Below, in pieces: positions 1 through 29,379 of a DNA stretch of 35,435 nt. The notes beneath the pieces were generated by a model. The model had not been told where the DNA came from. It ran no database searches and saw nothing but the letters and a program-made list of their open reading frames with translations. Each line of letters begins with the position of its first letter. Positions within the stretch are counted from its first letter, which is position 1. Made by a program: the position numbers and the translations under genes. This stretch comes from Lobosporangium transversale (lineage: Eukaryota), in contig NW_019029083.1 in assembly GCF_002105155.1 (NCBI RefSeq), positions 1 through 35,435 on the forward strand. Reading direction: 5' to 3'.

Positions 1-90
1 AAGAAAAACACGAATGCACTAACAGATTAAATGCAACAACAATAATAATAACAATAAAAAAAAGAAATAGTTAAATCAATCCATTCTTTT

Positions 91-1365: not shown

Positions 1366-1398
<33 letters not shown>

Positions 1399-1774: not shown

Positions 1775-1805
<31 letters not shown>

Positions 1806-2260
1806 CGCGTATTTAGAATGATTTGCTGATAAAAACACGCAGTTCAAACTGCAAGGTGGAAGAAGTTAAAGATGCTTTATAACGAGCAGGGATCATTTAT
1901 GGTAGCAAGAATCACGTTCTTGCGAACCATGTCCTTCGTGAACAGGGGAACAAAAAAAAAAAAAATTTGTAACACCCAATTTTATGACGTCCTGTGAGAA
2001 TTCAGGGCACCTCCATCATCTTTTTGTCAATTGACTGCAGATATTGGGTTCCGAGTGTCCAGTGATTACTCGCTGGGTCCAGAGATTGGTATCCGATCTT
2101 TCCAACTGGTCAATCAATATGGTCATGGCTTCCTTAAGGGAGACTTCCATTGGGAGGGAGGAAGAGGGGAGATCTCAAAGCAAAGTCATTTGAACAAGTG
2201 AAGAAAAAAAAAAAAAATCTTACCGACATAACCGGCACCAATGCAGCAGATGTTGACCAT
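91..2260 (-). CDS. UGD1: UDP-glucose 6-dehydrogenase, 3 exons (2260-2224, 1752-1479, 1174-91), 464 aa
   Basis: Spliced translation starts [17 protein letters not shown] (Rossmann GxGxxG). It contains [11 protein letters not shown], the catalytic [10 protein letters not shown] and [14 protein letters not shown] motifs. All introns are GT..AG and phase-consistent; CDS total 1395 nt. Confidence 0.97.
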
Positions 2261-2390
2261 TGTGGAGATATTAGAGTTGAAAGGAGGAGTAGTGGTGAGA
2301 AAAAAAAGAAGTTGGAGTTGTGATGCGATGGAGATGAGGATTCAGAAGAAAGGAATGAAAGAAAAAGAAAAGAGATGGCCCTTGTCCAAA

Positions 2391-2459
2391 TATTTTTATA
2401 CTCTTTGAGGTGCAGGGTCCCCCTTCTTCTCCCTTTTACAGTACGGACGCTGATTGGCC
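2391..2459 (-). promoter_or_regulatory. Candidate TATA box and CCAAT box upstream of the UDP-glucose dehydrogenase gene
   Basis: On the minus strand, TATAAAAATA (2400-2391) and GGCCAATCAGC (2459-2449) lie ~130-200 nt upstream of the ATG at 2260. Confidence 0.45.
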
Positions 2460-2973
2460 TGGTTGTCTTGATTCAATTGTTCCTTTTGTTCCTTTGGGAT
2501 CTTAGGGGTGTATGTGTGTCCTCCTTATCGTCGAAAATGTATAATAAGAAAATAAATTGAAAACAAGCGGTTATTTTTGGTCAAAGGTTATTAATAAAAA
2601 CTTTGATTCGTCTTTATTCCTTTCTGACTATCTTTGTGCACACTCCAACACTTTTTATTGGACTTTCTTTTTTTTTTTCCTTTTTTTATCCACTGTGCAC
2701 TCCCTTACATCGATGCAATTCGTTCTTCATATACTCACTCTTATACTCCTGTGCTCTTTTACTCAGCAGATCCATTCAACTTTTTAATCAGTTCCTCTTG
2801 CCAATGAGCATCCATCCTTCCTCCCTTCCTTCCTTCCCGCTGCCTTTTATTTTATCTTATTTTATTTCATTTCATCTTATTTATTCCATACTATTTTCTC
2901 GGAGGCAAGAAAAGAGGGAGACAAAGAAGGGGGGGGGGAAGGAAATGGCGGAAACCACGACTATGCAAAAGGG

Positions 2974-3006
<33 letters not shown>

Positions 3007-3409
3007 CTATCAAAATATCTGCCTTCTTCCGACATGCCGATCTTTCCTCGCCTCTCCACCTTGCTCCTAGTCTACTCTGACACAATCGCGAAAAATCTAG
3101 GCCGGAGCAACAAGGGTGATCCATCTATCTCTACAACCAATACAGGTTTAAACTTTCCTTTCTATAACAATGATCGGAGCAAGACGCTTAATGGATTGAT
3201 GAAACCAGTAAAGGAAATGATGCTCACTTCTTAATGGGATATAAGATATATTAACATTGTTATTACATATATAAATATACCACAATCATTCCAAAGGACC
3301 GTGAATATGTAACTCAATGGATGTCTGTTTTGACGCGATCAGTTTTTTCTGGTTCTCAAAATCGATTACGTAAATTAATTCTTTACATCTTTGAATGTCT
3401 GTTCCCAGG

Positions 3410-3440
<31 letters not shown>

Positions 3441-3871
3441 CATGTACATTGAATGTTCTTCCTTCTTTTTCTTCCTTCCCCCCCTTTTTTTTTTTTTTTT
3501 TTTTTATCAAATGGCTTGTGCACGGATATCGGAGCAAGCTTATGATGGATTAGAATAGTCAGATGTGAGAAGTGTTCTTATCAATTTCGTCTTCTATCAC
3601 CTTCATAGAAAGATATTAGCAAAAAAAAAAAAAAAAATAATAGAAAGAGAGATAAGGAATGGGAGGCGTAAGCAAGCATGAGACAATGATGAGTTGGTTG
3701 TGTTAAGGAGAAGCTTTTCAAAAAGGTTGTCCGAGCTTCGTTCGATCTAGCTCTGAGGAGACAAGTCATAGTCCTACATCTGATTACCCAACAAGGCCTC
3801 TCCTTTTAATATCTCTCTCTCAAAAAAAGCATTTTATATACAAGGAAAAAAAAAAAAAAAAAAAAGAAACA

Positions 3872-3925
3872 AATAATAATGATAATAATAATGATAATAA
3901 TAATGATAATAATAATGATAATAAT
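3872..3925. repeat. Compound AAT/GAT microsatellite (ATAATAATAATG-type 12-mer)
   Basis: Directly visible tandem array just downstream of the PEX11 stop codon. Confidence 0.85.
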
Positions 3926-4030
3926 TGACAATAGTTATTACATTTATTGCTTTCTAAAAATCGAATTTTTTCTTGAACCATGCCACACCCATAATTGCAT
4001 AGCTCGTTCAAAAAGTACTGTAGACTGAGC

Positions 4031-5631
4031 TTATGCCTTGTTGACTTTGTTGACTTTCTCCCATTGAGTCTGAGCTCCCATGATGGCAGTAGCAGTACTA
4101 AACAACAAAAGGAAGAGCGAGGTATACATCAGATCCCAAATGCACGATTGAAATCAAAGTCTAGAAAGCATGGTACAAACAAACAAACAAAAAAAAAAAA
4201 AAAAAAAACCCTAAAACACAAAGTAGAACCCTTACCCAATAAGACCCACGGCCCCGTCGTCCAAGTTAAGGTAACCCAAACCAGTGGCAGGGATGAGCAT
4301 ATCCAAACCGTCTTGGAGGAGCTGTTTGTTGACAGTGTGCTGCTCCCTATAATAAAAGACGGAGAAATTAACCCACGTCAGTATAAATATTCATTAGCAA
4401 GACAAGACAATTAAAGTCATGGATGTCGACTGGGCTGATGAAGAGGCCGAATCGAAAGTCACGACATGTATAAATAAATAAGAAAGAATATGTTCTGCAG
4501 TATACGTACTTTGCAATAGCCTTAAGCTGAGCACGAGCGTCCGACTTCTCAGATTCACTGTTATTAGAGAGACCACGGGCGGCAGCCTCGCGACGGATCT
4601 GGAGCTGGCGAGTCTTGTACAATCCGCTGACGAATCCGAAAATGATTCCGGCCAACCAGAACCTGCTGGCGAGCTCGTTATACTTCTTGATATTCTTAAA
4701 CTTGTAGGCACCTGATCCATCGATCTAGTCACAAATATAACAAAACAAAATCAGCCAATCTGCACTTTCAGCGCAATGGGCGTAGGGAGGCTTTCAAGCA
4801 TGAAGATTATGACGCAATCAGCTACTTACAAAGATAATTCCATCAAAGGTCAAGTAACCGGCGTAGGCCAACTGCTTGCCAATGGTGAAGAATCGCAAGA
4901 TTTCATCCTTGACTGATGTGGCCTTGGCAGCGTTTTCCAAGTGCTCAATTGGCTTGCCTATTGGATAATGAAGAGGAGGAAGAAGAAGAAAACAGAACCG
5001 GATTTTTAAGACTCTTGAATCGCGGTTTTTGATGGACGTATTCATAAATATCTGAAAGATCGAGCAAGCTGCTCCTTACCGAAACGCATCACTAGATCGG
5101 ACATGGCACGTGAAGAATGAAGCAGAAAAGGCAGATCACAGAGGAATTAGTATCCGAGTCGAAGATTAAACAAATGATGGCAGTAAGGGCGTTTTCTGGA
5201 CATCCGGACATGAAGATACTCTTGGGGGAAGTACAAAGCAGCCCTCGGCTGCTTTAGTGTGTACTTGATGCAAAAGCATGAATAAAGTGAACAGAGTCAC
5301 TGTATTTTTTTTTTTTTTTATCATTTTCCAGAATTTTGTTCTCTCAAATAAAAAAAAAAAATGAATTTGCAATTCCTTGAAACATCTCATCCAGATTTCA
5401 AGAACAGAATGAATCCCATGGTCACTTACGCTTGCGAGACAAGCCGAGGGTCTTCTTGAGGTTGTTGAAGCGCGCGACAGTTTCCTTGGTGGCACCCTGG
5501 CGGAGAAGGTACCAAGCGAGGAAGCGGGAGAAATACTGAACAGCTCTGTAGATCTTGTCACGACCAACGGTTGTGGCTGTAAACTTGAGCCAAGGCTGAA
5601 CGTTGATAGGTAAGCTGACGGCAGTAGACAT
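4031..5631 (-). CDS. PEX11: Peroxisomal membrane protein PEX11, 6 exons (5631-5430, 5091-5080, 4957-4830, 4724-4510, 4346-4236, 4097-4031), 244 aa
   Basis: Contains TTVGRDKIYRAVQYFSRFLAW, LGLSRKLMRFGKPIEH and QDGLDMLIPATGLGYLNLDDGAVGLIG, all typical of Pex11. The 735-nt spliced CDS is in frame with canonical splice sites. Confidence 0.95.
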
Positions 5632-6753
5632 GGCGATTGAGTAATGAACAAGAGAGGATCAAGAAGTGGTGTAAAGGAATAGAATGAGTTGTTTCTTGGT
5701 GAAAAAGAGAAAGCGGGGGAGTTTTTTTTTTTTTTTTTTTTTTTTTTCGGTCTTTAATACACAATCCCGTGTCACTTGTGTTTCCTCAGTAGAACCCGCA
5801 TGGATGGAAAATATAAGATTTTCCATTGTGTGGGTGGGATGAAATCATAATCTTCAATTGTAAATTGTAATTGTAAATATATTTGTATCGTGTGGTCGGT
5901 CTTCACGTGAATCAGATCTGTTTGGAGCACCGAATCACCAACTAAGCCGAAGATTCAAAAGGAAATGGACAGTTACAGAAGGGAAACAAACTTGATCAAA
6001 CAGATATCCCACGGATTCACTCTCCAGCTTTTTTTTTTTTTCTTTTTCTAGCAAACGCACAGGACACATTCAAAAAAAAAAAAGAAAAAACAGCAAAAAT
6101 CAAGCCACGCTTGGATGAAGAAGGATGACAATGATCTGTCTAAATGACAAAGAAGAGCAACCCGTGTGGTTTTACCAAAGAAATTGACCATCCGAAATGA
6201 TCCTTTTTTGTCCTCAATCTCATCACTGCTTATTGGTAAATTGGTACAACGATACTGAGAAAGTCACCGATATTGCGATCAATAACTCACCAATTCCTCT
6301 TGTGCTTTCACTGACAGGGACAAAACATTTAACAGTTCATATTAATGAATTATTTGGGTGGGACTATTTTTTTTTTTTTTTTTTTTTTTTTTTGACCCAA
6401 TGGCCTTGCGTCTTTGTCATTGCCACTGGTATTCATGGCAGTTGTGTACCTAATTTTTCTTACTCCAAAATATCGTCCCTTTGCCCACCATTCACACATT
6501 CTCATCTTCCCATCTCTTTCATCGCACATCATCGACCTCTCTTGAACTTGCAGCTTTTACTGATCTCTACTCCACTTTGCTCTATTCTGCTTCACTTTAG
6601 TCTACTCCACTCAGCCCTTTACCTTGTCATAAAAGGCCTATATTTTCGCACACACATATATATAGATATATAGATATACATATTTCTGCATTGAATATAA
6701 TCGATATTCTCAGCAGAAACGAACCAAAGCCATAGAAGCAATCATAGCCATTG

Positions 6754-8690
6754 ATGGCGAAGACTTATGGAACCATGTCTGAGGCCGACCCCGTCCTCTA
6801 TTCGTCGTCTTCCAACACAATTATCGCTCGTTCCGGTAGTCCTACCAGCGTTGGCAAGCAGACAAACGATAGTAGGAGTTGTAGTAGTCCAATCCGATCC
6901 AATATTGGTGGAAACCATGAGCGACACTCTTCTGACGAGTCCCCCTTGTTGAATCATGGATCACACGGTAATCATGATATTGGTCATGGTAACGAGGTTG
7001 GTCCATCTGCTGGCTTCTGGAGCTGTGTAAGTTCAAATCCTAATGATCCTAGTACACAATGGGGGTGTTGGGTGCAAGCATTTTTTGGAGTTACGTTGGG
7101 CGCTGTTAGATCCGCAGTTACGTTGGGCGTTATTGTATTAATAGTCCTATTATGTAACACATAAGAACTTTCCGCCATCTATTATATTCGCTAATTTTTT
7201 TTTTTTTCTTCTGTTTCGCTTTCTCCACAATGTGTTTAGACAATTAATTTGGCCAATACCATTCTAGGTACAGGCATGCTTGCCATGGTAAGTTCTGGCT
7301 GAGAATTCGCTTTTATGCCAGCAAAAGAATAAAGAATAAAAATATATAACCTTGACTCTGATTCCTGTGATCTTTTCATTATTCTTGATAGCCTGGAGCA
7401 CTAGCAGCTGTGGGAATGATCTTAGGAAGCTTCATGATAGTATTTTCAGCCTTTGCATCTGGACTTGGACTTTACTTTTTGACACGGAGTGCTAGTAGGA
7501 CTGAAGGCCGATCAGCGTCATTCTTTGCCTGTTCGAAACTCACATACCCTTGGGCAGCAGTGATTTTTGATTTTGCAATCGCAATCAAATGCTTTGGTGT
7601 CGGTATCTCTTACTTGATCATTATTGGAGATCTGATGCCTGAAGTCGTAAAATCTATGAGTACACTGGCGTTTGTTGCGGCAGGCGGTGATGGATCAGGA
7701 GATATGGATCCCATTCTCTGGTTCCTGATCGACCGTCGCTTTTGGATTACTATTTTCATGGGCATCATCGGTCCATTGTCCTTTTTGAAGAAGTTGGATT
7801 CGCTCAAGGCCACGAGCGCACTGGCTCTTGTTGCAGTTGTCTATTTGGTTTTCATCGTTATATATTATTATGTGAATCCGGAAGGACCTTTACCACCCAA
7901 GGAGGATATTCAGTATTTTAAATTTTCAGGACAGTTCTTTACAACGCTTCCGATCTTTGTCTTTGCCTTCACATGCCACCAAAACATCTTTTCTTGCTAC
8001 AATGAATTGACGGATAACGGCCAAAGTATGTTGAACAGGATCATCACAAGCTCTATTGGAGCGGCTGTTGGCGTGTACCATGTCATCGGTGTATTGGGAT
8101 ACTTGACGTTTGGAAATGCTGTCGGAAGTAATATTATCCAAATGTACAACTCTTCTATGTTGGTCACGATTGGTCGTATCGCCATTGTGGTTCTAGTGAT
8201 GTTCTCTTTCCCACTGCAGTGTCATCCCTGTAGGGCCTGTCTGGACAAGGTGCTATTCGCTTTTGGAGAGTATTGGCAAACGACACGTTTCGGCAAGGCC
8301 AAGAAATATAACTCACTAAACTCCCATGATGCTGATGAAGATCATGCCTCAAACACAGCTACTCTTATAGGCGCTCATCAACATGACGACCATGGTGGGG
8401 TTATCCCCGAGCCATCACAACTCAAATACATTGTTATGACCTCTGCAATTATTCTTGGAAGCTATATTGTTGCGATAACTGTTTCGGAGCTGGAACTTGT
8501 CCTGTCGCTTGTGGGCTCGACTGGATCGACAGCAATCTCGTTTATTTTACCAGGAAGCTTCTACTATAAACTACACGTAAACGACCCTTGGACTGTACGC
8601 AAGATGCTGTCAGTGGGTCTGTTGACCTATGGATGGCTTGTCATGATCATCTGTCTGTCAGCCAACATTCGCCGTATTATTAGTGGATAA
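6754..8690 (+). CDS. Vacuolar amino acid transporter (Aa_trans/AAAP, AVT5/6/7-like), 3 exons (6754-7026, 7240-7287, 7392-8690), 539 aa
   Basis: Motifs INLANTILGTGMLAMP, AIAIKCFGVGISYLIIIGDLMP, PIFVFAFTCHQN and GSTGSTAISFILPG, with many hydrophobic helices. The N-tail carries a DESPLL dileucine motif. Confidence 0.93.
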
Positions 8691-9349
8691 GATGTATTAT
8701 ATATTTGGAACATGTATGGGAAATGCAACAAGAGCTGGGACGTTTGATTGATTGTTGCATAGATTTTTTTTTTTCGTTTCCTATAACAAATAGTGTATCA
8801 TTCGTTCATAATTAATACATGTATTTATTCCAAATCCTTTTTTGCACTGTTACAAAGCACTGTGGTAATGAAGATCCTTCGTGCTTTGTCTTTTTCTTTT
8901 CTTTTGATACTTCGCTCTTCTCCTTTTTCCTTCTTCCTCACTGCCAACCAGAACATGTAAAAAAAAATTTAAAAAAAAAAAAAAATGGCCCCTTACTTTG
9001 CGTGGCAAATTTGGGTGAACTTGACCATGATGCTTTGACCTGACTGACTTGTTCCCAACTGAGCCTCAAGTTTGGAATGAGATTCCCAATTGTCAGTTCA
9101 TTCAGTCTCATTTCACTCTTTCCCAACTCTCCTACTTTTTTTTCACTCGTTTGCATTTCCTTGGGTCTTTTTATTTTATTTTTTTTTTTTTTATTTTTTT
9201 TTATTTTTTTTTTATAAACGAATAAACGAATAAACGGTGCTGTACCGCCTACGGTTTTGCAACGAAAACCTGACCAAACAGTAAAGTCCGAACATCTTTC
9301 AAACAGAAATCCTTCCCATCCGCATCACTTGTTGGTAGCTTTGGTCAGG

Positions 9350-9967
9350 ATGGAGTCACCCCTACTCAATCATGTGAACGAGTTGAAGGACAAAGGACCC
9401 AGACGATGGTTTATTCTGGCCATGTCGTGCTTACTTCTTTTTGGCAATTACTTTGGTATGAAGAATTAGCGCGCGTGACTTTCTCTTAGTTTGCAGTATT
9501 TTGTCTGTACAGTTACAAGTTTGGCTCACAACCTTGCTAAAAACTAACTTGATGCATATGTCTTTTTCCCTGCATCTCCTGCATGTTCTGCATGCGGCAC
9601 CGAAAAAAAAAAAAAAAAAAAAAAAAAATAGCCTACGACAATCCTGCTGCACTCAACACCCAACTTCAGAAATACTTAGAAATCCCCTACAACGATTATC
9701 AATATCTTCTGTCTACGCTCTACAGTGTCTATTCTTTACCCAATACTATCCTACCTTTCTTGTTTGGGTCTCTTGTAGACAGATTTAGTCCTCAAAGGGT
9801 GTTGTTGATGCTCAGTGGCTGTGTCTGTATTGGTCAGACCATCTTCTCGATCGGAGTTCAATCTCGGAAGGTGTGGATGATGCTTTTGGGACGAGCCATC
9901 TTTGGAATTGGTGGTGAGAGCTGTAGTGTTGCACAAGCCAGTATCACAACTATGCAATTCAGGTGAG

Positions 9968-9998
<31 letters not shown>

Positions 9999-12186
9999 TC
10001 TGAGTTAAAGTATCATGGAGCTTCCTGTCAGAAACTCCCCCTTCCCCCATCTGCAAGATCCAACGTTCTTATGAGGGGGGTAATTTGTTCATCATTTACA
10101 AATAGGGGACATGAGCTTGCTCTTGCATTAGGACTAAATCTTTGTATTGCAAGATTTGGTAAGTAAGATTTAAGATTTGGGTCCAAGCGTTTTTTTTTTT
10201 TTTTTTTTTTTTTTTGAAAAAAATTTACCAAGACTATTTACAGCTTTTCAACTTTTATTCTTTGTTTGGTTAAGGATCTGTCGTGAACTCCATCATCACA
10301 CCATGGATTGAGCAACTATGGGGCGTCCCAACAGCAATATGGGTAGGAACACTCAGTTGTGTGGCGTCATTTTTATCCGCAGTTGCTCTGGTCTGGATGA
10401 TCAACAACCCTCCTCCATTCACACCAACTACACCCCAAAAGGAAGAGCAAGATGTAGCACCATTGCTTTTGGATGCACCAAACCCTAATACCAATAACAA
10501 TGCGAACAGCGGGCTTTGTCTTACAGTAATTGACCATACTGGAACGCCTCATGCACATGCACCGCTGCCCATTATCTGTCCCCCTACAGAGTTTGCTATC
10601 GTTCAGCACCTGCCTGGGGCTTTAATGCAAGAGGATAGCCTCGTAGGGTCGGTTGATAATACCCTGTTTACACCAGATACCGCTGAGTCATCCACACGAG
10701 CATCTCTTCATATCACTAACGCAGACTATCTACAGAAGCAAGAGCTTTGGTGGATGCAGTGGTGGGAAGGTCTCAAGTTCTTTCCATCTTCATTCTGGCT
10801 GCTCTGTGCCATGACTGTGCTGCTCTACAGCACGGTTGTACCATTCAATAATGTCGCAAGTGACTTCTTGCAATCAAAATGGTATCCTAATAACCCCCGA
10901 AAAGCCACTACAATCATGAGCATACCCGATACCATTGGCGCCTTCTTAGGTCCTTGTCTGGGCATTATAGTAGATCGATATGGAAGACGTGCAAGCATCC
11001 TGATCGCATCCACAATTGTTTTGGTGATTGTCCATACTACCCTGGGTTTTACTATGATCAATCCCATATTTGCGTTCTCATTACTTGGTATAGCCTATGC
11101 GATGTATGGTGTTGCTATCTGGCCTTCCTTTGCGTGGTAAGCAAGTGCTTCTTTTGATGCCAGTTAGAGAAACAGAGAGAAAAGGGAAATGGAAATTATA
11201 AATAGCTTTACAACACAACCATGCTATCGTTCTCAATGCTTTCAATTTATTCCTTTTAAATTAGTGTCATCACGAGCGAATTGCACCTTGGTAAAGGGTA
11301 TGGGATCGGTTCAAGTTTTCTCAACATCTCATTAACCGCGGTGCCTCCAATCGTGGCCACAATCCGTGTGTTGTGCGGAAGCTTCGTCCCCGTAGAGGTT
11401 TTCTTTATTTCAGTGGGGCTTGTGGGGACCGTAGTGGGATTCATACTGAAGGGGATCGATTGTCGGGATGGAGGTGCGCTGGAAGCACCGGAGATCCATG
11501 TTGAAGCACCGGTTATTATGTCACAGCCTTTAGCGGGCTCAGTTCCTCCCTCGGCAATTGCATCTCCAGCGATGTCTCTGGCTCGATACCAGCTTTCGGA
11601 GGATCAGAGGCGCCTTCGACTGATTATGCTTAGATCATCAATATCTGAATCTGGGCTTGGCTGGATGCCAAAACGCTTGGAGGATTATAGCGACGATGAT
11701 GGAGTTGATGATGGTAATGATAGCAATACTAACAAGTACAGCCAGCAGAACGCATTTCTAATTCAATGGGAAGCACAAGGCGAGAATTCATCAGCCAAAC
11801 CGTCGTCCGTCTATAGTCCAGATTCACCAGCACCTTCATCACTCATGCTGAAGAAGATGAGGAGGAGATATCGACGATGCCATGACCGGACACTACTATA
11901 TCAGGCGCTTGGGAAGATCAGAAGCCCATTACTTCGTCAGCATTCATCCAGCTCCCGTTATGGGTCAATACCATCGCCATCCACCGCTACAATGCAAGAC
12001 GAACAATGGAATATAGATGAAGAAGCAAAGACTCTCCTCGACCCAGAATGTTACAGCGTGAGTGAGTATCCTATTCTCTATAACCCATTACGGGGAAGCT
12101 CGGGTAGTTTTCGGATCAGTAGAAATGTACAGCCAGTGACATTGGATGAAGCCAGGGGAGAGGGACGAATTCCTCAAGATGACTAA
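9350..12186 (+). CDS. MFS transporter, MFSD1-like (lysosomal/vacuolar), 5 exons (9350-9455, 9632-9962, 10106-10158, 10275-11136, 11265-12186), ~757 aa
   Basis: Spliced FGNYFAYDNPAAL, LYSVYSLPNTILP, GRAIFGIGGES and GHELALALGLNL match MFSD1-family motifs; also GIIVDRYGRR (MFS motif A). Exon phases are consistent. Confidence 0.9.
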
Positions 12187-12401
12187 GCGGTAGGGTCAGG
12201 AGAGTATGATAAGAATGAAGAATGAATCTGGTGAAGGCTCTGCTGCCCAAAAATTGAGGATTCAAGAATGGGAATGACAACTATGTATGACAGAATGACT
12301 GATACCAAAGCTGCATAGAAGTGAGAACAAGGTCTAATGCTTTAATGATTGGAGCGACACTCCCAAAGAAGCTCGGCTCTTTCTGTTGTAAACTGCTTAA
12401 C

Positions 12402-12404
<3 letters not shown>

Positions 12405-12449
<45 letters not shown>
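12405..12449. repeat. (ATT)15 microsatellite
   Basis: Perfect trinucleotide array between the convergent 3' ends of the MFS and MAPEG genes. Confidence 0.95.
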
Positions 12450-12583
12450 TTAAGAAAAATATTAAATAGCAATAATAAAGAAAAGTTGTATGAAATAACA
12501 ACTTTTTAAAATTGATATATTTATTCATTTATTCAAAGTAATGTAGTAAGATGAAGTTTTTTTTTTTTTTTTTTTTTTGCTGC

Positions 12584-13153
12584 TCATGAGCGCGATACGA
12601 TTAGATCATAAGCAAACTTGCCCATAAAGCCCAAAAGACCAAACTCGCCAATGTGGCCAAATGCACCGATCAGTCGTGCAGAGGGTCTACCGGTGGTATA
12701 TCCGAAATAATAAAAGATCCTTCCTAGGCACCAAACACCACCCAGAACGGCTGAAGGGATCGGATAGACCACACCAATGAGCAAGAGCATTGCTAAGTAG
12801 CCCGTGAAGCCCTCAAGGGTATTTTGGTGAACGCGTTGGTAGCAGTTGAAGATGAGTTTTTGATGATCTTCTTTGCATTCTGCAGCATCTGCATAGAGGA
12901 ATGGTAAAGGGACTTGAGCGATTTTGCGGTAGCTGGTTACTCGTGCACCGAAGAATATGGTCAATGCAATTGAGAAAGCTGCAATGATCACAACCTGGGG
13001 TTGAGAGAGAGAGAGAGAGAGAGAGGAAGAAGAGAAGAACTTGTTTAGCTTCTAGTTCTTGAAAAGATAATTTGTAAAAAAAAAAAAAAGAAAAAGAAAA
13101 AGAAAAGTTCAACTTACATAACCGTATTCAGGGGTAAGTTTAAAAGCATCCAT
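12584..13153 (-). CDS. MAPEG family microsomal glutathione S-transferase 3-like, 2 exons (13153-13118, 12994-12584), 148 aa
   Basis: Starts MDAFKLTPEYGYVVI and contains FNCYQRVHQNTLE and GRIFYYFGYTTGRPSAR, signatures of MGST3-type MAPEG proteins. Confidence 0.93.
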
Positions 13154-13406
13154 GATGGCAAGAGAAGTAGAACAAATTAGTTCTTGTTTGTTGAGAGCGT
13201 TGATTAGTGATTAAGAGGAAGGGAATAAAATAAACTAAAAAGAGGAAGGGACTGTGGAGAAAGAAGGCTTTTATAAAGAAGGAGAATATACACGTTGAAA
13301 ATAAAATAAAATAAAATAAAAAAAAAATAAAAAAAAAAAAAGATCGAGGCGTGTATGATGACGCGCATCTTGCGCTTGTTGAAGACGCGTACTGATCGAG
13401 GCTTTT

Positions 13407-13440
<34 letters not shown>

Positions 13441-14551
13441 CGACTTTTTTCTGCGTGGCTCTTGCTCACAATTATCGATCGTTTTTTTTTTTTTTTTTTT
13501 TTTTTTTCTTGGCGTAGGTGGAAATGCGCTGCAGCACCGCCTAAATAAAAGGTACATTGTACACGATTTTTTTTTTTTTTTTTTTTTTTTTTCCAACGTG
13601 CTGGAGGGAAAACATGTCATATCTTTCATATCACTTTTTATATAAGAAAAAACTCTCTCATTATTAATAACCGACTAAGACAACAAAGAGCATGACGAGG
13701 CCGACTTTGTTAGCCACCCATTCGACTGTGAAAGAGTTTTGGATGAAGATTCTAGATTTCACAAGGCAAGGATGAGTGCGTAGTCGGGCAATGAAGATAA
13801 AACATCCATCGGATTAAAAACTTCGACAGCAACATTCTTTAACACCATTAAAGTGAAAAAAACACAACAATGTCTGCGAAACCAGCTCGTCTACATCTTC
13901 GGCGGTTAGTCATGAACATAAATTCTCGAGTGGTAGAGGAATAGCCCTCTATCTCCATTAAAGCAAGCCATCTATGCCTAGAGGATGGTCTCAATGCTTC
14001 AATACTTTTCAGGTCAAAAAAAAAAAATAAATAAAAAATAAACTAGAGCACCATATCATACATATATATCCGTCCTATGTAGTTTTTGTTTTCATTCATT
14101 TCATCATCATCACAATTACAATGAAAAATAGTGAATCATATAGATGTACTGAACATGTACGAACACAAGTATTTTTTCAGTAAAAAAAAAAGTCAAAGTT
14201 ACCTTTGTTTACCGATGTTTCAGCGGGGTCTCTGTCTGGACACTCTAATTACGTACTAGTAGACCAACACCACTTACTGGAGGCCCTCCATGTATGCATG
14301 GCAGAAAAAGTTATTTATGCCAGATCCAGCAGGAAATCAAATTCTATCGTATCCACCATTATTAAAAGCGTGATATATGCGCGGCATGGAAAAGTTTGTT
14401 GATCCTTAGTAAAATATCGATTTGGACTTGTCAGTGAGTGTCCATGCATTGCACTGAAGCCATTTAGGTTGGCGATGTGTCTGACCTAAGGTACCTTGGA
14501 AGGTTGCATCCCGATGCCATATCTTAAAAACCCTTCCTCCCCCTACAAAAC

Positions 14552-15241
14552 CTTGAAGAATATCAATAAAGCCTTTTCTTTCAATGATTCCTATCATCAT
14601 CAGCTTTCCACAATCTTCATTAACCCCAATGTGCCTGGTACTTGGTACTCGGTACCTAACATCTAAATAGTGGTGCTTTCCACCATCTCCAACGTCATTG
14701 TACAGACATAGACACGCAGATAACACAGTAGATGTGAGTGTACAGCCAGACAAGCAGACAACTTGACAACTTGTGTGAGCTATCCCAAAACTCTTTTGCG
14801 GATCATGGCCAAGGAGACAAGAGTAAACTTTATGGAATAAGACAAAGACAAGCTCCGATTAATATTTGGTCTAGAGTGCCTATAACTAGCCATTAGAGGC
14901 ACCGTGTAAAACCAAAGACCTGTTGCTCTCGCTATATTGTATCCGTCTTCCTCAAAGGAGACGTGAAAAGGACTAGCAAAATGCCGATCAGAATCCTTGC
15001 TATGTTATGATCCAAGTCGAGTGAGATCCCACGCTTTATTTAAGAAGGCTTTTGATGATCCAAAGCACCAAGAGCAAGTCGTTTTATTCCCATGTAGACA
15101 TCCATTGATCAACTCAAAAGATTCCACCTCAATCCCAATGCTATGTCTCTGTCAAACACTCCCTCTCTTCAAATATCATAAGATCAGTCCTGGAGAGCGA
15201 TCTGTTTAAAAGCTCTATAAGGGATTCTCAAAAGATCGTTA
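14552..15241 (+). repeat. Left arm of 690-bp near-perfect inverted repeat
   Basis: Reverse complement of 16676-17365. I found only two mismatches by eye (14558, 14998). The ORF track shows mirrored peptides (14997+ vs 16896-, 14753- vs 17164+). Confidence 0.97.
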
Positions 15242-15604
15242 AATGTTACCAACGAATCATTGAGTGATAGGCGCTATTTATTTTTTCTATTTGCATTTCG
15301 GTGCTGCTTTTTTGTAACCCACTGAATGTATATATCATGTTTAACTGTTACTTAATACAGACGCTACACACTATTATTCCTTTTATCTCTTTTTTACAGC
15401 TCTCACAAAGGCACAGCATTGAATTTATTAGTGTGCTTCACGATGTTTATTTTTGGTCATAATAATGTCTTTATTATCGAAGTAGAGGTTCAAATAATTT
15501 TATACAGTTAGCAATTTCATGAGTGGTATGCTTGCTTCTTTGATGTCTGATGACAGGGGTAGACTCTGCGTCCGAGAGACTGGGATGTGCTCTGCTTTTT
15601 TGCC

Positions 15605-15870
15605 CTAAAATGGGATTAGGCCACCTTCACTTCGTGGAATGGCTACTTTTTCAGAGCCCTTGAAGGGGATCCCTGGCTTCTTTCTCAGAGCTCTTGAAGG
15701 GGATTGGCCCACCTTCACCTGGCGGGATGTCTACTTTCTCGGGACCTTTGAAGGGGATTGGCCCACCTTCACCTGGCGGGATATCTACTCTCTCGGAGCT
15801 CTTGAAGGGGATTGGCCCACCTTCACCTGGCGGGATGTCTACTTTCTCGGGGCCTTTAAAGAGGATTGGG
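15605..15870. repeat. 54-bp minisatellite: 3 full units, one 34-nt truncated unit, one diverged unit, with ABAB higher-order pattern
   Basis: TTGAAGGGGATT-type unit starts recur at 15694, 15748, 15802 and 15856 (period 54). There is a truncated unit at 15660-15693 and a diverged unit at ~15606-15659. Confidence 0.95.
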
Positions 15871-16040
15871 CTAGCTATAAGATTAAATATGGAAAATGAA
15901 GTAGTAGTGAGTCAAATGCGTACTTGAACAGTACAGATACCAACAAAGACAGGTGTGAAGATCCTACCGTCTGCCCTAGGGGTGACCACAACTAAGGCGG
16001 CAGCGACTACGGAAATGACAGCGGTGATTAAGAGCTTCAT
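15651..16040 (-). CDS. Small secreted tandem-repeat peptide precursor, 2 exons (16040-15968, 15874-15651), 98 aa; not in ORF track
   Basis: Translation: MKLLITAVISVVAAALVVVTPRADA-SPILF-KGPEKVDIPPGEGGPIPF-KSSERVDIPPGEGGPIPF-KGPEKVDIPPGEGGPIPF-KSSEKEARDPLQGL*. It has a classic signal peptide and a 93-nt GTAGGA..CTCAC..TTATAG intron that joins it in frame to the repeats. Many differences between repeats are synonymous in this frame. Confidence 0.8.
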
Positions 16041-16129
16041 GACGTATAATGGATAATGGAGATTCGAGAATCTTGTTAAGTGTTGTAAGGTATTTGAAGA
16101 AAAGAGAAGAAAGACGTGAGATGTTCTGC

Positions 16130-16136
16130 TTTTATA
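16130..16136 (-). promoter_or_regulatory. Candidate TATA box of the secreted repeat-peptide gene
   Basis: TATAAAA on the minus strand ~90 nt upstream of ATG 16040, preceded by a poly(T) tract and followed by a CT-rich leader. Confidence 0.5.
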
Positions 16137-16137
16137 T

Positions 16138-16168
<31 letters not shown>

Positions 16169-16675
16169 GATACATCAAGCTTGACACATCGAGAGAAATC
16201 AATAGCTTTCTACGTCAAAGGTGCTTTTCTGTTTTGTTATTTGTACTCTTTCAGATCATTTCAGTTACAGCGGAACCTGCTACGCTCAATTACGCTCAAT
16301 GAACCAAGAACGGTTGCATGTCTATAAATGTGTACTGGTATGACGATATAGTTTGACTTTGAAGCATGCGACAAGAACGTTTCATTGGTCTTGTACGGCT
16401 ATTCTCGTTTTATGCGGTTTGATGCATTTCCATGTCGACGTTTGGGTCAAACAGCCCAATGGAGGAGCTGTAGTCGTAATACATTTAAAATTAGAATGAA
16501 CTAATTAGCCTTATTTGGCTGCTTTACATAATCAGCCAGGCGAAGCTGCTTGCTTGTCTTTGTTACTGATGATTAATACATTTGTCTTGGGATACTCAAC
16601 CGTACCAAGTTGCTCACATTTTGGAGTATCAAACCAATGTGACGGCATACTATCGGCTCTTTTGCCCTTAATAGA

Positions 16676-17365
16676 TAACGATCTTTTGAGAATCCCTTAT
16701 AGAGCTTTTAAACAGATCGCTCTCCAGGACTGATCTTATGATATTTGAAGAGAGGGAGTGTTTGACAGAGACATAGCATTGGGATTGAGGTGGAATCTTT
16801 TGAGTTGATCAATGGATGTCTACATGGGAATAAAACGACTTGCTCTTGGTGCTTTGGATCATCAAAAGCCTTCTTAAATAAAGCGTGGGATCTCACTCGA
16901 CTTGGATCATAACATAGCGAGGATTCTGATCGGCATTTTGCTAGTCCTTTTCACGTCTCCTTTGAGGAAGACGGATACAATATAGCGAGAGCAACAGGTC
17001 TTTGGTTTTACACGGTGCCTCTAATGGCTAGTTATAGGCACTCTAGACCAAATATTAATCGGAGCTTGTCTTTGTCTTATTCCATAAAGTTTACTCTTGT
17101 CTCCTTGGCCATGATCCGCAAAAGAGTTTTGGGATAGCTCACACAAGTTGTCAAGTTGTCTGCTTGTCTGGCTGTACACTCACATCTACTGTGTTATCTG
17201 CGTGTCTATGTCTGTACAATGACGTTGGAGATGGTGGAAAGCACCACTATTTAGATGTTAGGTACCGAGTACCAAGTACCAGGCACATTGGGGTTAATGA
17301 AGATTGTGGAAAGCTGATGATGATAGGAATCATTGAAAGAAAAGGCTTTATTGATATTTTTCAAG
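16676..17365 (-). repeat. Right arm of 690-bp near-perfect inverted repeat
   Basis: Reverse complement of 14552-15241; the spacer between arms is 1434 bp. Confidence 0.97.
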
Positions 17366-19002
17366 ACTTTATAAGAACCGTAGGTCGATAGCAGAGGGAA
17401 ACAATGAGCATTGGTAATATGTGAGCTAACAGGGCGATGATTAGAATGGTGTAATTGGAGGATGAAGGGCTTTTGAAATATGGCGCATCAGGGTACAAGC
17501 TTACTTCAGTCTGTGCCATGGAACCTGAAATTAAAAAGAAAGTTTTCACGTGCTTGCTACTCTATTACTTTGATGATCACTATGATCATCTTGGCAACCT
17601 CGAGTGGACTCAAATGGGGATGGCCCTATTTAAACTAATGTCTCACATGTTGGGGTCATTTATACTGTGATAAAAAGGGACTCGCCACTTTCTACAATAT
17701 TCACTGATTTTATTTTGGGTCAATCCATTTACGATATCTAAATCGGTTGCTGTTTGAATCTCTGTTCCAAAGAATGGTGAGGATAGGAAATAAAAGGTTG
17801 AAAATTTTCATTAATGCACACGTCGTATTAAATGATGTTTCATTTTACTGAATCAGCTCCTGGAATGCATAAGCAGTTTTACAAACATCAGGCTTGGTCA
17901 CAAGTCATGCATGGATCGAAGCATTGAGAGGGTTGATTGAATTTGCTGAAGCTGAAGCTAGGGCAGCTATCATTCATCTATCAACATTTCAATTGAGCTA
18001 TCTGCTGAGAATTAGGCTGCACATCAATAGATCGGCCAATGATCTCTATCCAGGTCTCTGTAGTCGTTGGAGTAAGTAAGCATCAACTCTCAATCTTGAG
18101 GATCATGCATGTCGTTCCTTGTGTTCCATTTTTCTTCCCCTGTTTTCGACGCCATTTCTTCTGTTTTCATTTCCTCCTGCATTTCATCTTTTTTTGCTTG
18201 CTTGGTTCTGTCCAATGATCAATTAGGGAGATAGCAGTAGACATGCATGTTGTCTTCCATTCTTTTGTTCCGCCCCCTCTCTCCTTTCTTCCGTCTCACC
18301 TGTCACTCATTCAGGACGTTGGTTTGTGTTCCCAGAAGAGGAGAACGTGTAATGTGTGCATGCACTGCTTTTCTTTCTACCGTTTGACTTCCATCAATTG
18401 CTTGTTGTGCCTGATCTCTTCCCGCCGTCCTTTGATATATATGACCCCAAACCCCTCATTCTCCCTTATCCCCATCTCCACCCTCTTTATATCCCGCAAT
18501 AAACCTTCTCTTCACTACGATTCAAAAATATATAATATTAATAATAAATACTAAAAAAACCACCAACAGCAGGGGGTTTTTTTTTTTTTCTTTTTTCTTC
18601 TTTTCTATATTGCCAAATTAAATAGCCGAATGGTACGCTTATGAAGTCGAGTCAATTGATCCTCGACCATGCTTCTATCATTCTTTTTTTAACTCTCTTT
18701 AAAACTGTTCTTCCCGCCCTTTTTTGCACACCTTTTTTTTTTTTTTTTTTTTTTTGCGGAAGGGCCCTTGTTGCTCTGATTTATATGTCTTTGTGCTCAG
18801 TTTTCTTTTTTGCCCTTTTTACTCTTTTTTATCTTTCACTTAATTCTCTCACTTTTTCACTTCATTCACTGATTCATTCTCTTTTTTCTTTTCCTCTCAT
18901 CTTGACATCGCTCTATTAGCCCATAATTTACATCCAACTAAAAGAGAAAGTTCTTTTTCTTTTCTTCAGAAACATAAAAAGTAGAGCTCATTCCCTCAAG
19001 TC

Positions 19003-22000
19003 ATGTCCTTTGTGGACGACGTGATGGAATCTTCAATTCGCTCTAAACACACCTCAACTCCTCCACTTCACTCATCTTACCAACGGGTAGACTCATTCGA
19101 GCCCCAGAACAATCAGAGTCCGCGTGTAGTGGCAGAAGAAACACCGGTAGTGGGCGGAGGAGTCACAGGAGTAACAGAGGCTGAAGGTTCAACTACGGGA
19201 GGAACTAATAAACAGACTTCCCATCGTTCCAAACATGAATCGGCACCGGCTCCACCTAAAGGAATAGCAGCGTTAGGGAACCGGCCTCGATCGTCCTCTA
19301 GCACGAAGGCGCTACTGACAATGGCTTTACTTGAAGCTCAATCAGCAGTCCAAAAGGATAATGACGGCAATATCTCAGAGGCACTAGATTCCTATAGTAA
19401 GGCTGTTACACTCTTGGGGAAAGTCATGGAGGCAGCCTCTACACAAGATGAACGTGAACGATTAAAGATCATTGTAAGTTCATAGAAAAAAACAAAAAAG
19501 AGGAAAGATCGAACAGCAAGATCTTTCTCACAGCTGGTTCTTACGAGCTCAAAAGTACTCTTACTGTCATTCCTGCTCCAATTAACGTTTTTGGTTCACA
19601 TATTCTGACTTTCTCATCGCTCATCTCTGCTCTTGGAAAAAAAAAAAAAAAAGCACGACTCGTATCGGTTCAGAATGCATTTGCTTGCAACTCCGCCTTC
19701 ATTGCCAACACAACAGTCTGTAATAACACCCGAGACGAATAATGAGAGGCAATCAGAAGGGGCCATGGAAACTCAAGTAGTTCAATCAACGCTAGGGACA
19801 GAGACGGCACAGAATGTTCAAGAGTCACGAAAGATACAGAGCAACGATGAGGAAAAACCTCAGGCGACGGCGCCAGTGGAAGAGTACACAAAATCTACTC
19901 CTCCTCCAAGGCCACCACCACCACCGCCTGGCTCATTGGATCTTCCGCTTTCTTTGAAAGAGGCACTAAAGGAGCAAGGTGTGACTTTTGATGACCCTTC
20001 ACCACCACTACGACCACCAACTCTAGGGCTTCCACCATTGCCCATGTCCCCTCCCCCTATACCACCCCGGAATCCTCCCCCACCACCTCCACGGTCTCCC
20101 CCTCCCCTGGCGAGTATACTCGGACCAGCTCCTCTTCCTCCACAATCTGTAGCAGCCTCTGCATCAACGTCAACAATACGCTCCCATGCTCAGGCCACCT
20201 CAGTGCAGATGCACGCTATGCCACTGAATGCTATGGCCTCTGTAGAAAATACAGGAGCATCGACAACAACAGCAATGACAGCTATTTCTGGAGGTATATC
20301 ACAAATAGCAATGGTTCGAAAAGATGCACCACCTAAGCAGACCAAAAAAAATAGAGCTGTTTCACACGGACCTCCTGCTGCAGCCCCTGCACCTCCTACT
20401 GGCGAGCCAAAGACGCGTCGCTTAAGAGCAGAATCAGCTTCAGTAGGGTTATCAGGAACTAATAATTTCTCAAAGTTGGAAAATACGTCAAATGAAAATG
20501 GATCAAGTCTGGCAAGGAATCGCTATCGTACAAAAACCTTTGCAGGAGTACCTCGTACCGCCCAAACAGACCTTGAGCATCAGCCACAACCACAAGCACA
20601 TCCCTCACCCACACTACCATCCCAACAACAACCGCAACAACAACAGTTGCAACAGCGTCGTGTAAGAGACAAGGAGCAAAAGCCTAAATTCGTCATCTTG
20701 AAGAGCGCCCCTACTGTACCATTACCACCACCTCCACCACGGACATCGGGACCAACTACAGAGCCATTACAGGCCGCAGACTCAACATCAGCGCAAAGCA
20801 GAGATGTATCAGCTATGCATGCGATGCCCATGTCGCCCCTTATGTCACCACCTATGTCGCCACCCGTACCTCAAGTGCCACCATTAAGACCTAATCGAGT
20901 GAGCGCAGCATCTAAATTTACCAAATCAGGAACACCCACACTTACTGCTGCACACATGACGTTTTCGTCCATGGGTGACGGCAGTAACAATGGACGGCCA
21001 TTGTCACCTCCACCTACTTCTCCACCACCAATCATCCCTGTATCGCCACCATTATCGCCCACTAACCCTGGGCGACGAATCAGACCGCTCTATCAACAAT
21101 TAATGCCACAACCACCAATTAAGTCTCCTGAGCAACAACAACAGCAGCAGCAACAGCTTCCTGAGAGCCAAGCGGAAGTACAAGAGCAGAAGCAAGACGG
21201 AAAGGAGCAAAAAGGGCAGGTTGAAGGCTTAGCAACATTGCATGAAGACGAAAGAGAGGAAAGCCACTCATCGGAATCATCCAGTTCTCATCGTATATCT
21301 CATTCATCGGCAAGCTCTGTAGAAAAAGAGGCGTCTTTAACTATTAATTCTACTATGGCTAACCAAACTCAATCTACAACAAAAAAGGGGTTGGAATCAT
21401 CGGCTAATGCCTCGGCCGACCCAGACACTTTAGTCGAGGTGTGGCTACCCAATTTATTAAATACGAGCTTTGCTACGTCAAAGATCTTTTTAGATCATCT
21501 AGAGCAGCCTTCAGATTCTACTCCTCAGGATCAAGTTTTCCTTAAAGGTAAATTGATACTCCACCAGGCTATTTCCGCTTTTACTCTCCTTTTAATATCG
21601 TCCTAATTATATAATTCTATTGAACATCGTACGGGCAGGATGGTATAAATCTACGCAGCATGGTCAGGAAGATATACCACCAGTGCCATCGATGCCACCA
21701 GTACCGCCTTTGCCGGCAGGATATAGTCAACAGTCACCAGAAATGCAATCTGTAGAACAAATGCAATCACCTACAACATCAACCTTACCAACCTCATCCA
21801 CCATCACAACGAAGGCCTCGCCGCTCGCATTATCGCTTGAAAGCCAACAGCTATTGGACACATTGAGTCGAGCTACTGCAAATGCAATGGCAGCATTGGA
21901 ATCGCATTCTGGAGCAGCTACAACTAAACCTGCGACACGGACTCAAGAGGCTATTTCACCAAAGCTTCTTCCATCACGGACAATATCAGCTACGACTACA

Positions 22001-23684
22001 GCCACAAAAATCATGGACAGCAACAGCAGCAACAGCAGCAACAGCGACAGCAACAACAACAATAATTCCCCTATTAATGCCAACTTGAAACCAAATGGAA
22101 GTGGTAGTGGGAACTGTCAGAACAATGCTGATACCAATACCAACAGCAATAACAACTCTAAAGGTAGCAGCAGCAATAACCAAAATAGCCCGACAATAGC
22201 GGCACCAGCGACCATGGCTACTACAAACAATACTGGAACTGGACGAGAATTGAGTTTACAGGATGTAATCTCGCAAGATCCTTTCGCTGGGCTGAAAACT
22301 GTAGGGTTTAAACGAGTTTGTATGGACCTTATTTTTCGGTGACAATTGGGCCGCGCTAATTCTTCCTTTCCTTTTTTTTTTCTTTTTTTTTTTTTTTTTT
22401 TTTCCCTTCTTTACGATCACCAAAGCCAATCCCCCCACATGAACTGGACCCTCCTCCTCCTGCTGACCGATTCCTTCGATGCTTCTGGTTTATGCATTTA
22501 TTAGAACAAACCATGACTACTGGTGGCTTCCTCAGTCCTAAACTCTATGTACCTCGCAACATTTGGTATCAAAAGACAGCTGTCCGACTTCCTGCTATTG
22601 ATGCCAAGATTCATGCATGTCAGACTCTTTCCCAGACATTGGATCGAATGGTAGCCCAATCCAAAAGTGGCAAGCTCACATTGCTGGTCGAGCTTGGTGG
22701 ACGTGTCGAGAAGGGTGAAAAGGATAGAGCGATGCTTCTTCATGAACTAGCAGCCCTTGAGAACTTGACTCAGGAACTGTGGGTGAAGCTGAGCAAGAAA
22801 ATGTCATTTATTCATCGACCTAATAAGAATCAGAGTGTGGGTAGTGGCAGCGCAAACGGGGGCACTCTGATGCTGGGCTTACAGCAACAGGGATATCGCC
22901 CATCCCATCTTTACCAAAACCAAGCACTTTATAATCCTTCAACGCAAACACACCGTCATGGGGATCAAAACCAATCGGATGAGCATGGGCCTTCTTCCGC
23001 TTCAGATCCATATAGCTGGCTTGGCTCAGAAGAGATGTGGGCCTCAACATTACAGTCTGGAGGACTGACCGCTGGGTCAATATCCTCGGGATCAGTCTCC
23101 TCTGGTACCTTGACGGGCTCTTCCATGGTAACTTCACCGGTTTCAGAGAAAGGTAGCGGGAACAACAACAACACTAGCCATAAAAGAGTGACTTCTGGTG
23201 GTGCTGCCAGCGATCTAAAGAGCCAGTGGAAGAGTTTTTCAAAGTCGGTGCAAAAGTCCATCGCCACTGACAAAATGTAAATGTCTTTTTTCTTTCTTTC
23301 AGGGGTTGAAATGGAATATAACGACAGCTGTATTAAGGACAATCCAACTGACTTTTTTTTTTTTTTTTATTTTTTTTTTTTTTATTTTTTTTATTTTTTT
23401 TATTTTATTTTTTTTATTTTATTTTAATTGACTAATGTTTTAGTGAGGATACCACCAGCTACACAGAGGCTTTAATTCAGCTATTCCAATCTAGTTACAT
23501 CTTGGAGAGTATGCTCAAACATTTTGAAGCCTTACCACCACATCAAACTCATTTCAAGATCCTGGGTCGACTCCAACGGATTAGTGATTTCTACAACTTA
23601 GTTGTGTGTGCGTTTGTAATCCGTGATCTGGGTGAACTCATGTCAAAATATGTAAAGCGCATGGGCGCAGCAGTTGCTGAGTAA
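19003..23684 (+). CDS. MIT-domain protein with long Pro/Ser/Gln/Asn-rich linker and conserved fungal C-terminal domain, 5 exons (19003-19473, 19654-21547, 21639-22300, 22426-23276, 23444-23684), ~1372 aa
   Basis: MIT-like helices KALLTMALLEAQSAVQKDNDGNISEALDSYSKAVTLL...ERLKIIHDSYRFR. The C-terminal LRCFWFMHLLEQTMTTGGFLSPKLYVPRNIW and VVCAFVIRDLGELMSKYVKR resemble the fungal MIT-protein family. The 4119-nt CDS is phase-consistent. Confidence 0.85.
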
Positions 23685-28975: not shown

Positions 28976-29149
28976 GGCGATGGAGGCAGATGGGTAATGA
29001 TGAAAGAGGGTGATGGATGGTTAGTTAACGCGGTACACCTCGCTGATTATGGAGTGTGCCTGGAGTTTGCTTTTTTTTCTATTCGGAAGTACCCGTCACG
29101 GATTCGGCTTGGAACTGCTGCGCCACAAAATCGTGACTGCTTCTATTTA

Positions 29150-29379
29150 GGACTATCGGATGTCATTTGGCATCAAAGACGATATTTATCACATTTGGGG
29201 CTCTCGCCAACCTCGCGCGTCCGTACCTATGTACCCAGTCCACATCAACCGAATCTGAGCGTTTGTTCAGTAAGGCTGGGTTAGTTCTCCCACCATTCGG
29301 GACCAATCTCAGCGATCAAAATATGCGCAACATCATTTTTAGTCGCAGCTTTGAGAAAGTCCGGACTTTGTTAGACTAA
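29150..29379 (+). mobile_element. hAT transposase C-terminal dimerization-domain relic
   Basis: LANLARPYLCTQSTSTESERLFSKAGLV...NLSDQNMRNIIF matches the hAT dimerization consensus (LA..YL..P.TS..SER.FS.AG). The upstream part is frameshifted and the catalytic core is absent. Confidence 0.8.

Follow-up and report, generated by a model that had tools for sequence, protein, structure and literature searches.

KEX2-processed repeat proteins (KEPs) of fungi have been catalogued in Le Marquer et al. 2019 (PMC6339444) and Umemura 2020 (PMC7329392). In the sections of the latter cited here, the definition calls for KR, KK, RK or RR between repeats, and 7878 fungal KEPs are counted, 2560 of them stand-alone and without homologues (PMC7329392). 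The supplements of the KEP surveys that we cite give 8 KEPs for the genome of M. verticillata and 11 for that of M. elongata, and the role of KEP-type peptides in early-diverging fungi is stated as unknown in the pertinent section of PMC6339444. Some insight into maturation comes from KEPs of Coprinopsis, which, when expressed heterologously, gave products in mass spectrometry that end in Lys or are cut after a single Arg; in the parts of that report cited here, knockouts of six KEP genes had no phenotype and the synthetic peptides were not antibacterial (PMC9769878). Other secreted repeat precursors, the Ustilago Rep1 repellents and Laccaria MiSSP8, have surface or symbiotic roles and are cut at Kex2 sites, as described in the relevant section of PMC7329392. 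We describe here a locus that shares much of this layout and departs from it in the nature of its basic sites.

The window, by which we mean the whole stretch of 35,435 nucleotides analysed, encodes a UDP-glucose dehydrogenase that shares 91-94% identity with proteins of Mortierellaceae and no more than 79% with those of other fungi, which narrows to Mortierellaceae the early-diverging fungus proposed by the first-pass annotation of this DNA. Housekeeping neighbours of the locus comprise, besides this gene, PEX11, amino-acid and MFS transporters, MAPEG, an MIT-domain protein, UBX/SEP, an alcohol dehydrogenase and ATP synthase g. A public sequencing run (X1), compared over positions 1-20000, matches the window exactly in pieces of 891 nt and of 1384 nt and shows nine joints, seven of which have canonical intron ends. 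The exact pieces and the seven canonical joints out of nine together argue that the run is spliced RNA of the same organism; it is one run from one study, recognised as RNA by its spliced joints alone. Several features of the neighbouring genes emerged from the same comparison. Two joints in the PEX11 gene have non-canonical ends (4333-5445 and 4958-5430), and the 11 letters that lie between the two sides of one of them may be a micro-exon. A contig with a depth of about 1000 departs at 32 places from exon 1 of the UDP-glucose dehydrogenase gene (1523-1709), which suggests a second expressed paralogue. Directly past the MFS transporter exons, a 308-codon open frame lacking a Pfam match (11260-12186, plus strand) is covered by the contig 11624-12375 and is probably either a long C-terminal tail of the transporter or a separate gene. 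A low-depth contig in 14008-14201 stops at 14201 with 153 loose letters; this end may reflect an exon spliced elsewhere or a poly-A artefact.

On the minus strand, a gene can be read from the sequence that begins with an ATG at 16040, closes with a TGA ending at 15651 and has a product of 98 aa. Its parts and flanking elements, in the order of transcription, are as follows.

16130..16168, minus strand: promoter-like region of putative function, with a T25 tract (16144-16168) and TATAAAA (16130-16136)
15968..16040, minus strand: coding exon 1, 73 nt, predicted signal peptide, phase-1 splice
15875..15967, minus strand: predicted GT-AG intron, 93 nt, with an in-frame stop inside
15651..15874, minus strand: coding exon 2, opening with SPILF as a partial unit, then three complete units of 18 aa, a brief tail in the shifted frame, and TGA
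15424..15475, minus strand: candidate polyadenylation region of putative function, with three AATAAA beginning at 15475, 15451 and 15429

The anatomy is complete, from the T-tract and the TATAAAA (90 nt ahead of the ATG) through the ATG, the signal-peptide exon and the phase-1 intron to the AATAAA sites, and the locus is a real, apparently unannotated gene, likely spliced, for a predicted secreted repeat protein. The signal peptide, judged here by a simple rule and by hydropathy, carries Lys at position 2, followed by an uncharged hydrophobic stretch, and its A-x-A site is completed across the splice; over residues 1-21 the nine-residue Kyte-Doolittle means range from 1.9 to 3.4. Only two of the 1314 ATG codons of the window pass the rule, the exon-1 ATG being one; the other continues into a poly-T (poly-Phe) tract. 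By these two measures the prediction of a signal peptide with an A-x-A site, made in the first-pass annotation, holds. The sequence likewise agrees with the 93-nt GT-AG intron proposed there to join exon 1 in frame to the 54-bp minus-strand repeats, its splicing being predicted, and since a stop lies in frame within this intron, the repeats are reachable by splicing only. The donor (G|GTAGGA at 15967) shares its +5 G with all seven RNA-shown introns of the window, while its +4 G is present in none of the seven; the acceptor (TTATAG at 15875) equals the last six letters of the RNA-shown intron 4347-4509. Alternative donor and acceptor pairs were considered and also yield in-frame products; among the pairs, 15967/15875 is the one that unites a +5 G donor, an acceptor with a pyrimidine tract and an intact signal peptide.

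The repeats were delimited with TRF, which reports an array at 15694-15869 (period 54, 3.3 copies, score 294, far above chance) and a second at 15640-15704 (period 34). In codon register the array holds five units and extends beyond the end of the feature as first described.

15804..15857, minus strand: unit 1, linker KGPEK and core VDIPPGEGGPIPF (core 15804-15842)
15750..15803, minus strand: unit 2, linker KSSER and core VDIPPGEGGPIPF (core 15750-15788); the sole Arg site; present in the RNA contig
15696..15749, minus strand: unit 3, linker KGPEK and core VDIPPGEGGPIPF (core 15696-15734)
15662..15695, minus strand: unit 4, 34 nt against 54, opening with SSEK; site of the frameshift, after which the frame closes at 15651
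15605..15661, minus strand: unit 5, linker KGSEK and variant core VAIPRSEGGLIPF, then TAG; out of frame

Unit 4 is short by 20 nt, a deficit that shifts the frame, cuts off unit 5 and leaves the short C-terminal tail; it is either biological or an assembly error. Unit 5 proper (15608-15661) has the full 54 nt and ends in IPF, with the TAG directly after. The ancestral gene would have possessed five units, the last of them ending exactly at the final Phe of the core, and a loss of 20 nt in unit 4 would have left the three intact cores of today. A sixth, relic unit past the unit-5 stop was rejected, as its score was reached by 287 and 450 of 2000 shuffles. Units 1-3 differ from one another by 1-6 nt in an A-B-A-B alternation (units 1 and 3 by a single nt), so that the identity of their cores largely reflects recent duplication; across their 39 core codons there are no coding changes. 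The first-pass annotation had called the 13-aa core invariant and had confined all amino-acid changes to the linker, which is accurate for units 1-3, but not for unit 5, whose core departs from theirs at 4 of 13 residues. The linker changes it described, K(G/S)(P/S)E(K/R), and the synonymous changes it listed are present, TCC/TCT deriving from the truncated unit 4. Variable columns within units 1-3 are concentrated in the linker (5 of 15, versus 1 of 39 in the core; P=0.005), but with unit 5 added the proportions become 7 of 15 and 10 of 39 (P=0.19).

The divergence of unit 5 also supplies the best evidence for coding. In the proposed frame, 8 of its 13 differences from unit 1 are synonymous (P=0.005), as are 8 of 14 from unit 2 (P=0.008) and 9 of 14 from unit 3 (P=0.002), where about 25% would be expected by chance; the three comparisons are non-independent, and six frames were tried. 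Such a bias is absent in four of the five other frames of the array (P 0.34-0.90), and for the antisense frame with the wobble position in common P is 0.02-0.20. Two plus-strand frames run open through units 1-3, but the bias speaks for the minus-strand protein, in accord with the initial proposal of a minus-strand coding sequence in preference to a conserved plus frame.

Transcription of the repeat, expected from that proposal, finds support in a contig of run X1 of 84 nt at depth 70, of which 78 nt are identical to 15748-15825; the match is strandless. A k=31 graph built from exon 2 of the window contains a loop of 54 k-mers, or 84 nt, that passes through unit 2. The contig opens with the k-mer that comes after the branch where units 2 and 4 part, and its matched stretch stops at the other branch. 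Length and both ends thus fit the loop and identify the contig as the expected collapsed copy of the array, the six unmatched letters being taken to fit it as well. The repeat is transcribed in one RNA run; the contigs are strandless, and the matching one could come from a paralogue elsewhere. No contigs of this run fall on exon 1, the splice junction, the 3' end or the inverted arms described below, a gap that proves nothing; the assembler may drop the short flanks of a collapsed repeat.

Every collection searched came back empty of relatives, and the core is as unfamiliar as it had appeared from the sequence alone. Exon 2 matched none of 90 protein candidates of 40-128 aa and none of 949 candidates of 129-2000 aa at E <=10; six matches among 1.84 billion representatives were to unrelated long or low-complexity repeat proteins, which score by summed repeats, and were discarded. 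A search of 5.8 billion clusters did not find a protein of this sequence. The back-translated core had no exact match in metagenome contigs, and exon 2 was found in none of 169 metagenome candidate stretches and in none of 116 candidates from prokaryote genomes. Of five candidates from viral contigs, one is a 17-residue match that runs antisense to an unrelated 349-aa ORF, presumably similar to a capsid gene of large DNA viruses; it was judged to be chance, as were weak matches to GFP hairpins, the only ones obtained in the PDB (best E 0.0095). Pfam gave no family for exon 1 or exon 2 at E <=1, Rfam gave no match, and the ESM Atlas returned nothing usable. The collections searched hold no unannotated fungal genomes, which makes this absence of a homologue weak evidence, and in view of the KEPs counted in Mortierella and of the stand-alone share among all KEPs (2560 of 7878), an orphan repeat precursor is unsurprising here. 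The motifs GEGGPIP, GGPIPF, DIPPGEGG and VDIPPG were not found in the literature searched, and no core motif appears in those supplements of PMC6339444 and PMC7329392 that are cited here, the tables of which give accessions rather than sequences; a related peptide could figure in the peptide table of PMC6339444. Literature queries linking Mortierella with Kex2 repeat secreted peptides or with RiPPs found nothing, and a proline-rich query fared likewise.

The predicted product offers a distinctive set of potential processing sites. Its 98 aa contain no dibasic pair (KR, KK, RK or RR), and the sites are monobasic, as had been remarked at the outset. Each core is preceded by Glu-Lys or Glu-Arg and followed by Phe-Lys; the P2-P1 pairs at its bounds are F-K in three cases, E-K in two and E-R in one, with Lys at five of the six bounding sites and Pro at P2 in none. 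A yapsin-type substrate rule, requiring a single Lys or Arg at P1 and the absence of Pro at P2, is given in section 5.2.2 of PMC6624476, the part of that source used here; the core bounds conform to it, as do many sequences, the rule being permissive. The unit-5 stop coincides with the Phe|Lys boundary as well, an argument for a mature peptide that ends in Phe. The mature chain of 73 aa has no Cys, Tyr, Trp or His, and neither an N-glycosylation sequon nor a C-terminal hydrophobic anchor is present in the product.

Our preferred reading, which we regard as an even call, is that a non-Kex2 protease cuts a secreted precursor at single Lys or Arg residues, releasing three linear, acidic, Pro/Gly-rich 13-mers that would likely serve as an extracellular signal. 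After splicing, the product would enter the ER by way of its signal peptide (both steps being predicted); a yapsin-like or trypsin-like enzyme would cleave after Phe-Lys and after Glu-Lys or Glu-Arg, and a Kex1-type carboxypeptidase would trim the C-terminal Lys. The analogy of KEP peptides suggests that the resulting 13-mer might then diffuse and act as a ligand on the producing fungus or on its neighbours. Cleavage of a non-Kex2 type is favoured by the basic residues that bound each core, by the unit-5 boundary, by the preponderance of Lys (five of six sites) and by the mass spectrometry of Coprinopsis KEPs. On the other hand, Lys at intervals of 4 and 14 residues could be a matter of ordinary composition, the unit-4 frameshift shows that the array tolerates damage, and the contrast between linker and core is not significant once unit 5, with its four core replacements, is included (P=0.19). 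Signalling is the least supported step, and the analogy behind it is weakened by the Coprinopsis knockouts without phenotype and by the lack of antibacterial effect of those peptides. The proposed border between core and linker, and an effector role, which the first-pass annotation also raised, are likewise conjectural.

The alternative that best survives, possible although distinctly less probable than processing, is that the mature 73-aa chain is left uncut, as a disordered Pro/Gly-rich polypeptide of the hyphal surface or matrix, or one that serves as a decoy or a multivalent binder. The absence of a dibasic site is as expected of such a chain, and its composition (16 Pro and 12 Gly, 28 of 73 residues) is suggestive of disorder; a single-sequence AlphaFold model has a pTM of 0.13 and no secondary structure, although it is uninformative on the fold. 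Moreover, 7878 of 69,264 secreted fungal tandem-repeat proteins met the Kex2 criterion in the section of PMC7329392 cited here, which makes uncut or differently cut repeat proteins the majority. However, the chain would be very short for a structural protein, and it has no Cys, no GPI-like tail and no Ser/Thr-rich stretch, while the basic residues that flank each core, and the unit-5 stop placed on that very boundary, are more in keeping with cleavage into 13-mers.

The genomic setting of the gene raises a further alternative. The whole peptide transcription unit lies in the 1420-nt spacer between the arms of a long inverted repeat.

14544..15248, no strand assigned: left arm of the 705-bp inverted repeat, downstream of the gene
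16669..17373, no strand assigned: right arm of the 705-bp inverted repeat, upstream of the promoter

The arms differ by 8 mismatches in 705 nt, seven of them at the ends, so that the inner 683 nt (14559-15241) contain one. A colinear match continues outward (14500-14552 versus 17502-17448, 55 nt at 73%, E 6e-4, a score reached by 1 of 300 shuffles), and in combination with the near-identical inner arms it points to an inverted duplication of older date, homogenised or recently recopied in its inner part. Only two copies of the arm occur within the window, and the arms match nothing in Pfam (six frames, stops read through), in Rfam or among plasmids. At the arm ends there is no target-site duplication of 4-12 nt, and a 2-nt TA, which would fall below this range, is possible; a lone 4-nt direct-repeat match lies 20 nt inside them. 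Long terminal inverted repeats around a gene, the hallmark used for Pack-MULE and foldback elements, are present, and the arrangement could be a non-autonomous transposon, an invertible segment or an inversion whose breakpoints were duplicated. Beyond the right arm, at a distance of about 1.6 kb, begins a large gene (18985-23280, plus strand) that encodes an N-terminal MIT domain and long Pro/Gln/Ser-rich regions of low complexity. Elsewhere in the window, matches to the hAT C-terminal dimerisation domain (PF05699, E 3e-7, 29137-29376, plus strand) and to DDE_3 (PF13358, E 4e-5, below the curated cut-off, 33896-34636, plus strand) are probable DNA-transposon relics; around the latter, a 49-nt inverted repeat (31428-31476 and 35037-35085, 78% complementary, 3560 nt apart) possibly represents the decayed terminal repeats of a Tc1/mariner-like element.

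In such surroundings the gene might be a decaying or neutral passenger, that is, a once-functional repeat gene within an inverted duplication or non-autonomous DNA element that is still transcribed after selection has gone. The frameshift in unit 4, the four replacements in the orphaned core of unit 5, the homologue found nowhere, the near-identical arms that enclose the gene and the hAT and DDE_3 transposase relics of the window are all in line with this account. We nevertheless hold it to be unlikely: the start, the signal peptide, the splice signals, three cores and the promoter-like elements are intact, the 39 core codons of units 1-3 are free of coding change, the repeat is present in RNA, and the arm ends are devoid of a 4-12-nt target-site duplication.

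Far less probable still is a reading of the cores as cyclised or cross-linked RiPPs, either dikaritin-like or made by a macrocyclase of the prolyl-oligopeptidase (POP) type that cuts after Pro. The Pro-rich core with its terminal Phe lends it some plausibility, as does the combination of a signal peptide with repeated short cores, which is the layout of dikaritin or ustiloxin-type precursors (UstA, PhomA) and had led to their mention in the first-pass annotation. To our knowledge, however, precursors of POP-type macrocyclases are not secreted. In contrast to dikaritin precursors, the locus encodes no Kex2 site and no Tyr in the mature chain, and it has no DUF3328 or tyrosinase gene nearby. The absence of a DUF3328/UstYa gene from the window, claimed at first from inspection, is borne out by the open frames: 182 of the 184 stop-to-stop frames of at least 65 aa in the 35-kb window, a scope that leaves shorter exons aside, gave no DUF3328, tyrosinase or peptidase match. 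DUF3328 proteins were, moreover, found to be absent outside Ascomycota and Basidiomycota, with none in Mucoromycota, in the survey section cited here (Umemura, PMC7329392). The lack of Tyr together with that of DUF3328 in these frames rules out a dikaritin, and the comparison first drawn with that family does not stand. That the functional frame lies on the plus strand, or that the repeat is non-coding, has a negligible likelihood in our view, for although stop-to-stop frames are open there (15609-15896 and 15664-15924) and the RNA contig carries no strand, one of these frames meets a stop in unit 5 and has only 2 synonymous among 13-14 changes, the other shares the wobble positions of the minus frame and scores more weakly, neither begins at either of the signal-peptide-like ATG codons of the window, and the promoter-like and splice-like signals are all on the minus strand.

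Orphan secreted repeat precursors are common among fungi; what makes this one more curious is its partly broken array, together with inverted arms that are almost identical. Should the 13-mer be released as proposed in our preferred reading, it would represent a Lys-cut class of secreted peptides in early-diverging fungi. A bolder extension, which we consider doubtful, is that Mortierellaceae make bioactive ribosomal peptides by a Kex2-independent route with cleavage at single Lys, the present gene, with several cores in its precursor, being a first example, carried as a whole transcription unit on a cassette that homogenised inverted arms render flippable or mobile. If true, this Lys-cut route would be invisible to screens for dibasic sites, and both genome-wide catalogues, in the sections cited here, demand dibasic Kex2 sites (PMC6339444, PMC7329392); small spliced genes of this type are, in addition, easily overlooked. 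As the peptide is short, linear and readily synthesised, the claim is directly testable.

Among linear systems, the ascomycete precursors of the alpha-factor type, matured by Kex2, Kex1 and Ste13, are similar in their identical linear 13-residue repeats, signal peptide and short spacers. Unlike them, this product has no KR site, no long pro-region and no consistent run of XA or XP past the cut, GP occurring in two linkers and SS or GS in the others; X-Pro follows Lys in just two of the five linkers, short of a Ste13 pattern. The Pfam profiles MF_alpha and MF_alpha_N match neither exon 1 nor exon 2 at E <=1, and pheromones of Mucoromycotina are described as apocarotenoid in the section of PMC6339444 cited here. 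Rep1 of Ustilago and MiSSP8 of Laccaria offer a looser parallel, as secreted fungal repeat precursors without a modifying cluster; a sequence match between them and this gene was absent in all searches. The closest resemblance is to KEPs, with which the product has in common a signal peptide, at least three tandem repeats of at least 8 residues, basic residues between the repeats, small size and orphan status. An ER signal peptide is indicated by the rule-based test and by hydropathy, and the three in-frame units, each of 18 aa, agree with the KEP requirement for three or more repeats in tandem, 8-100 aa long. The difference lies in the sites: KR, KK, RK and RR are absent, and five of the six sites that bound the cores are a single Lys. 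For want of a dibasic site, the product falls outside the KEP definition and would be rejected by both published screens. Judged by its predicted sequence, it is KEP-like in layout, yet stands outside the KEPs as a putative variant with single-Lys/Arg sites.
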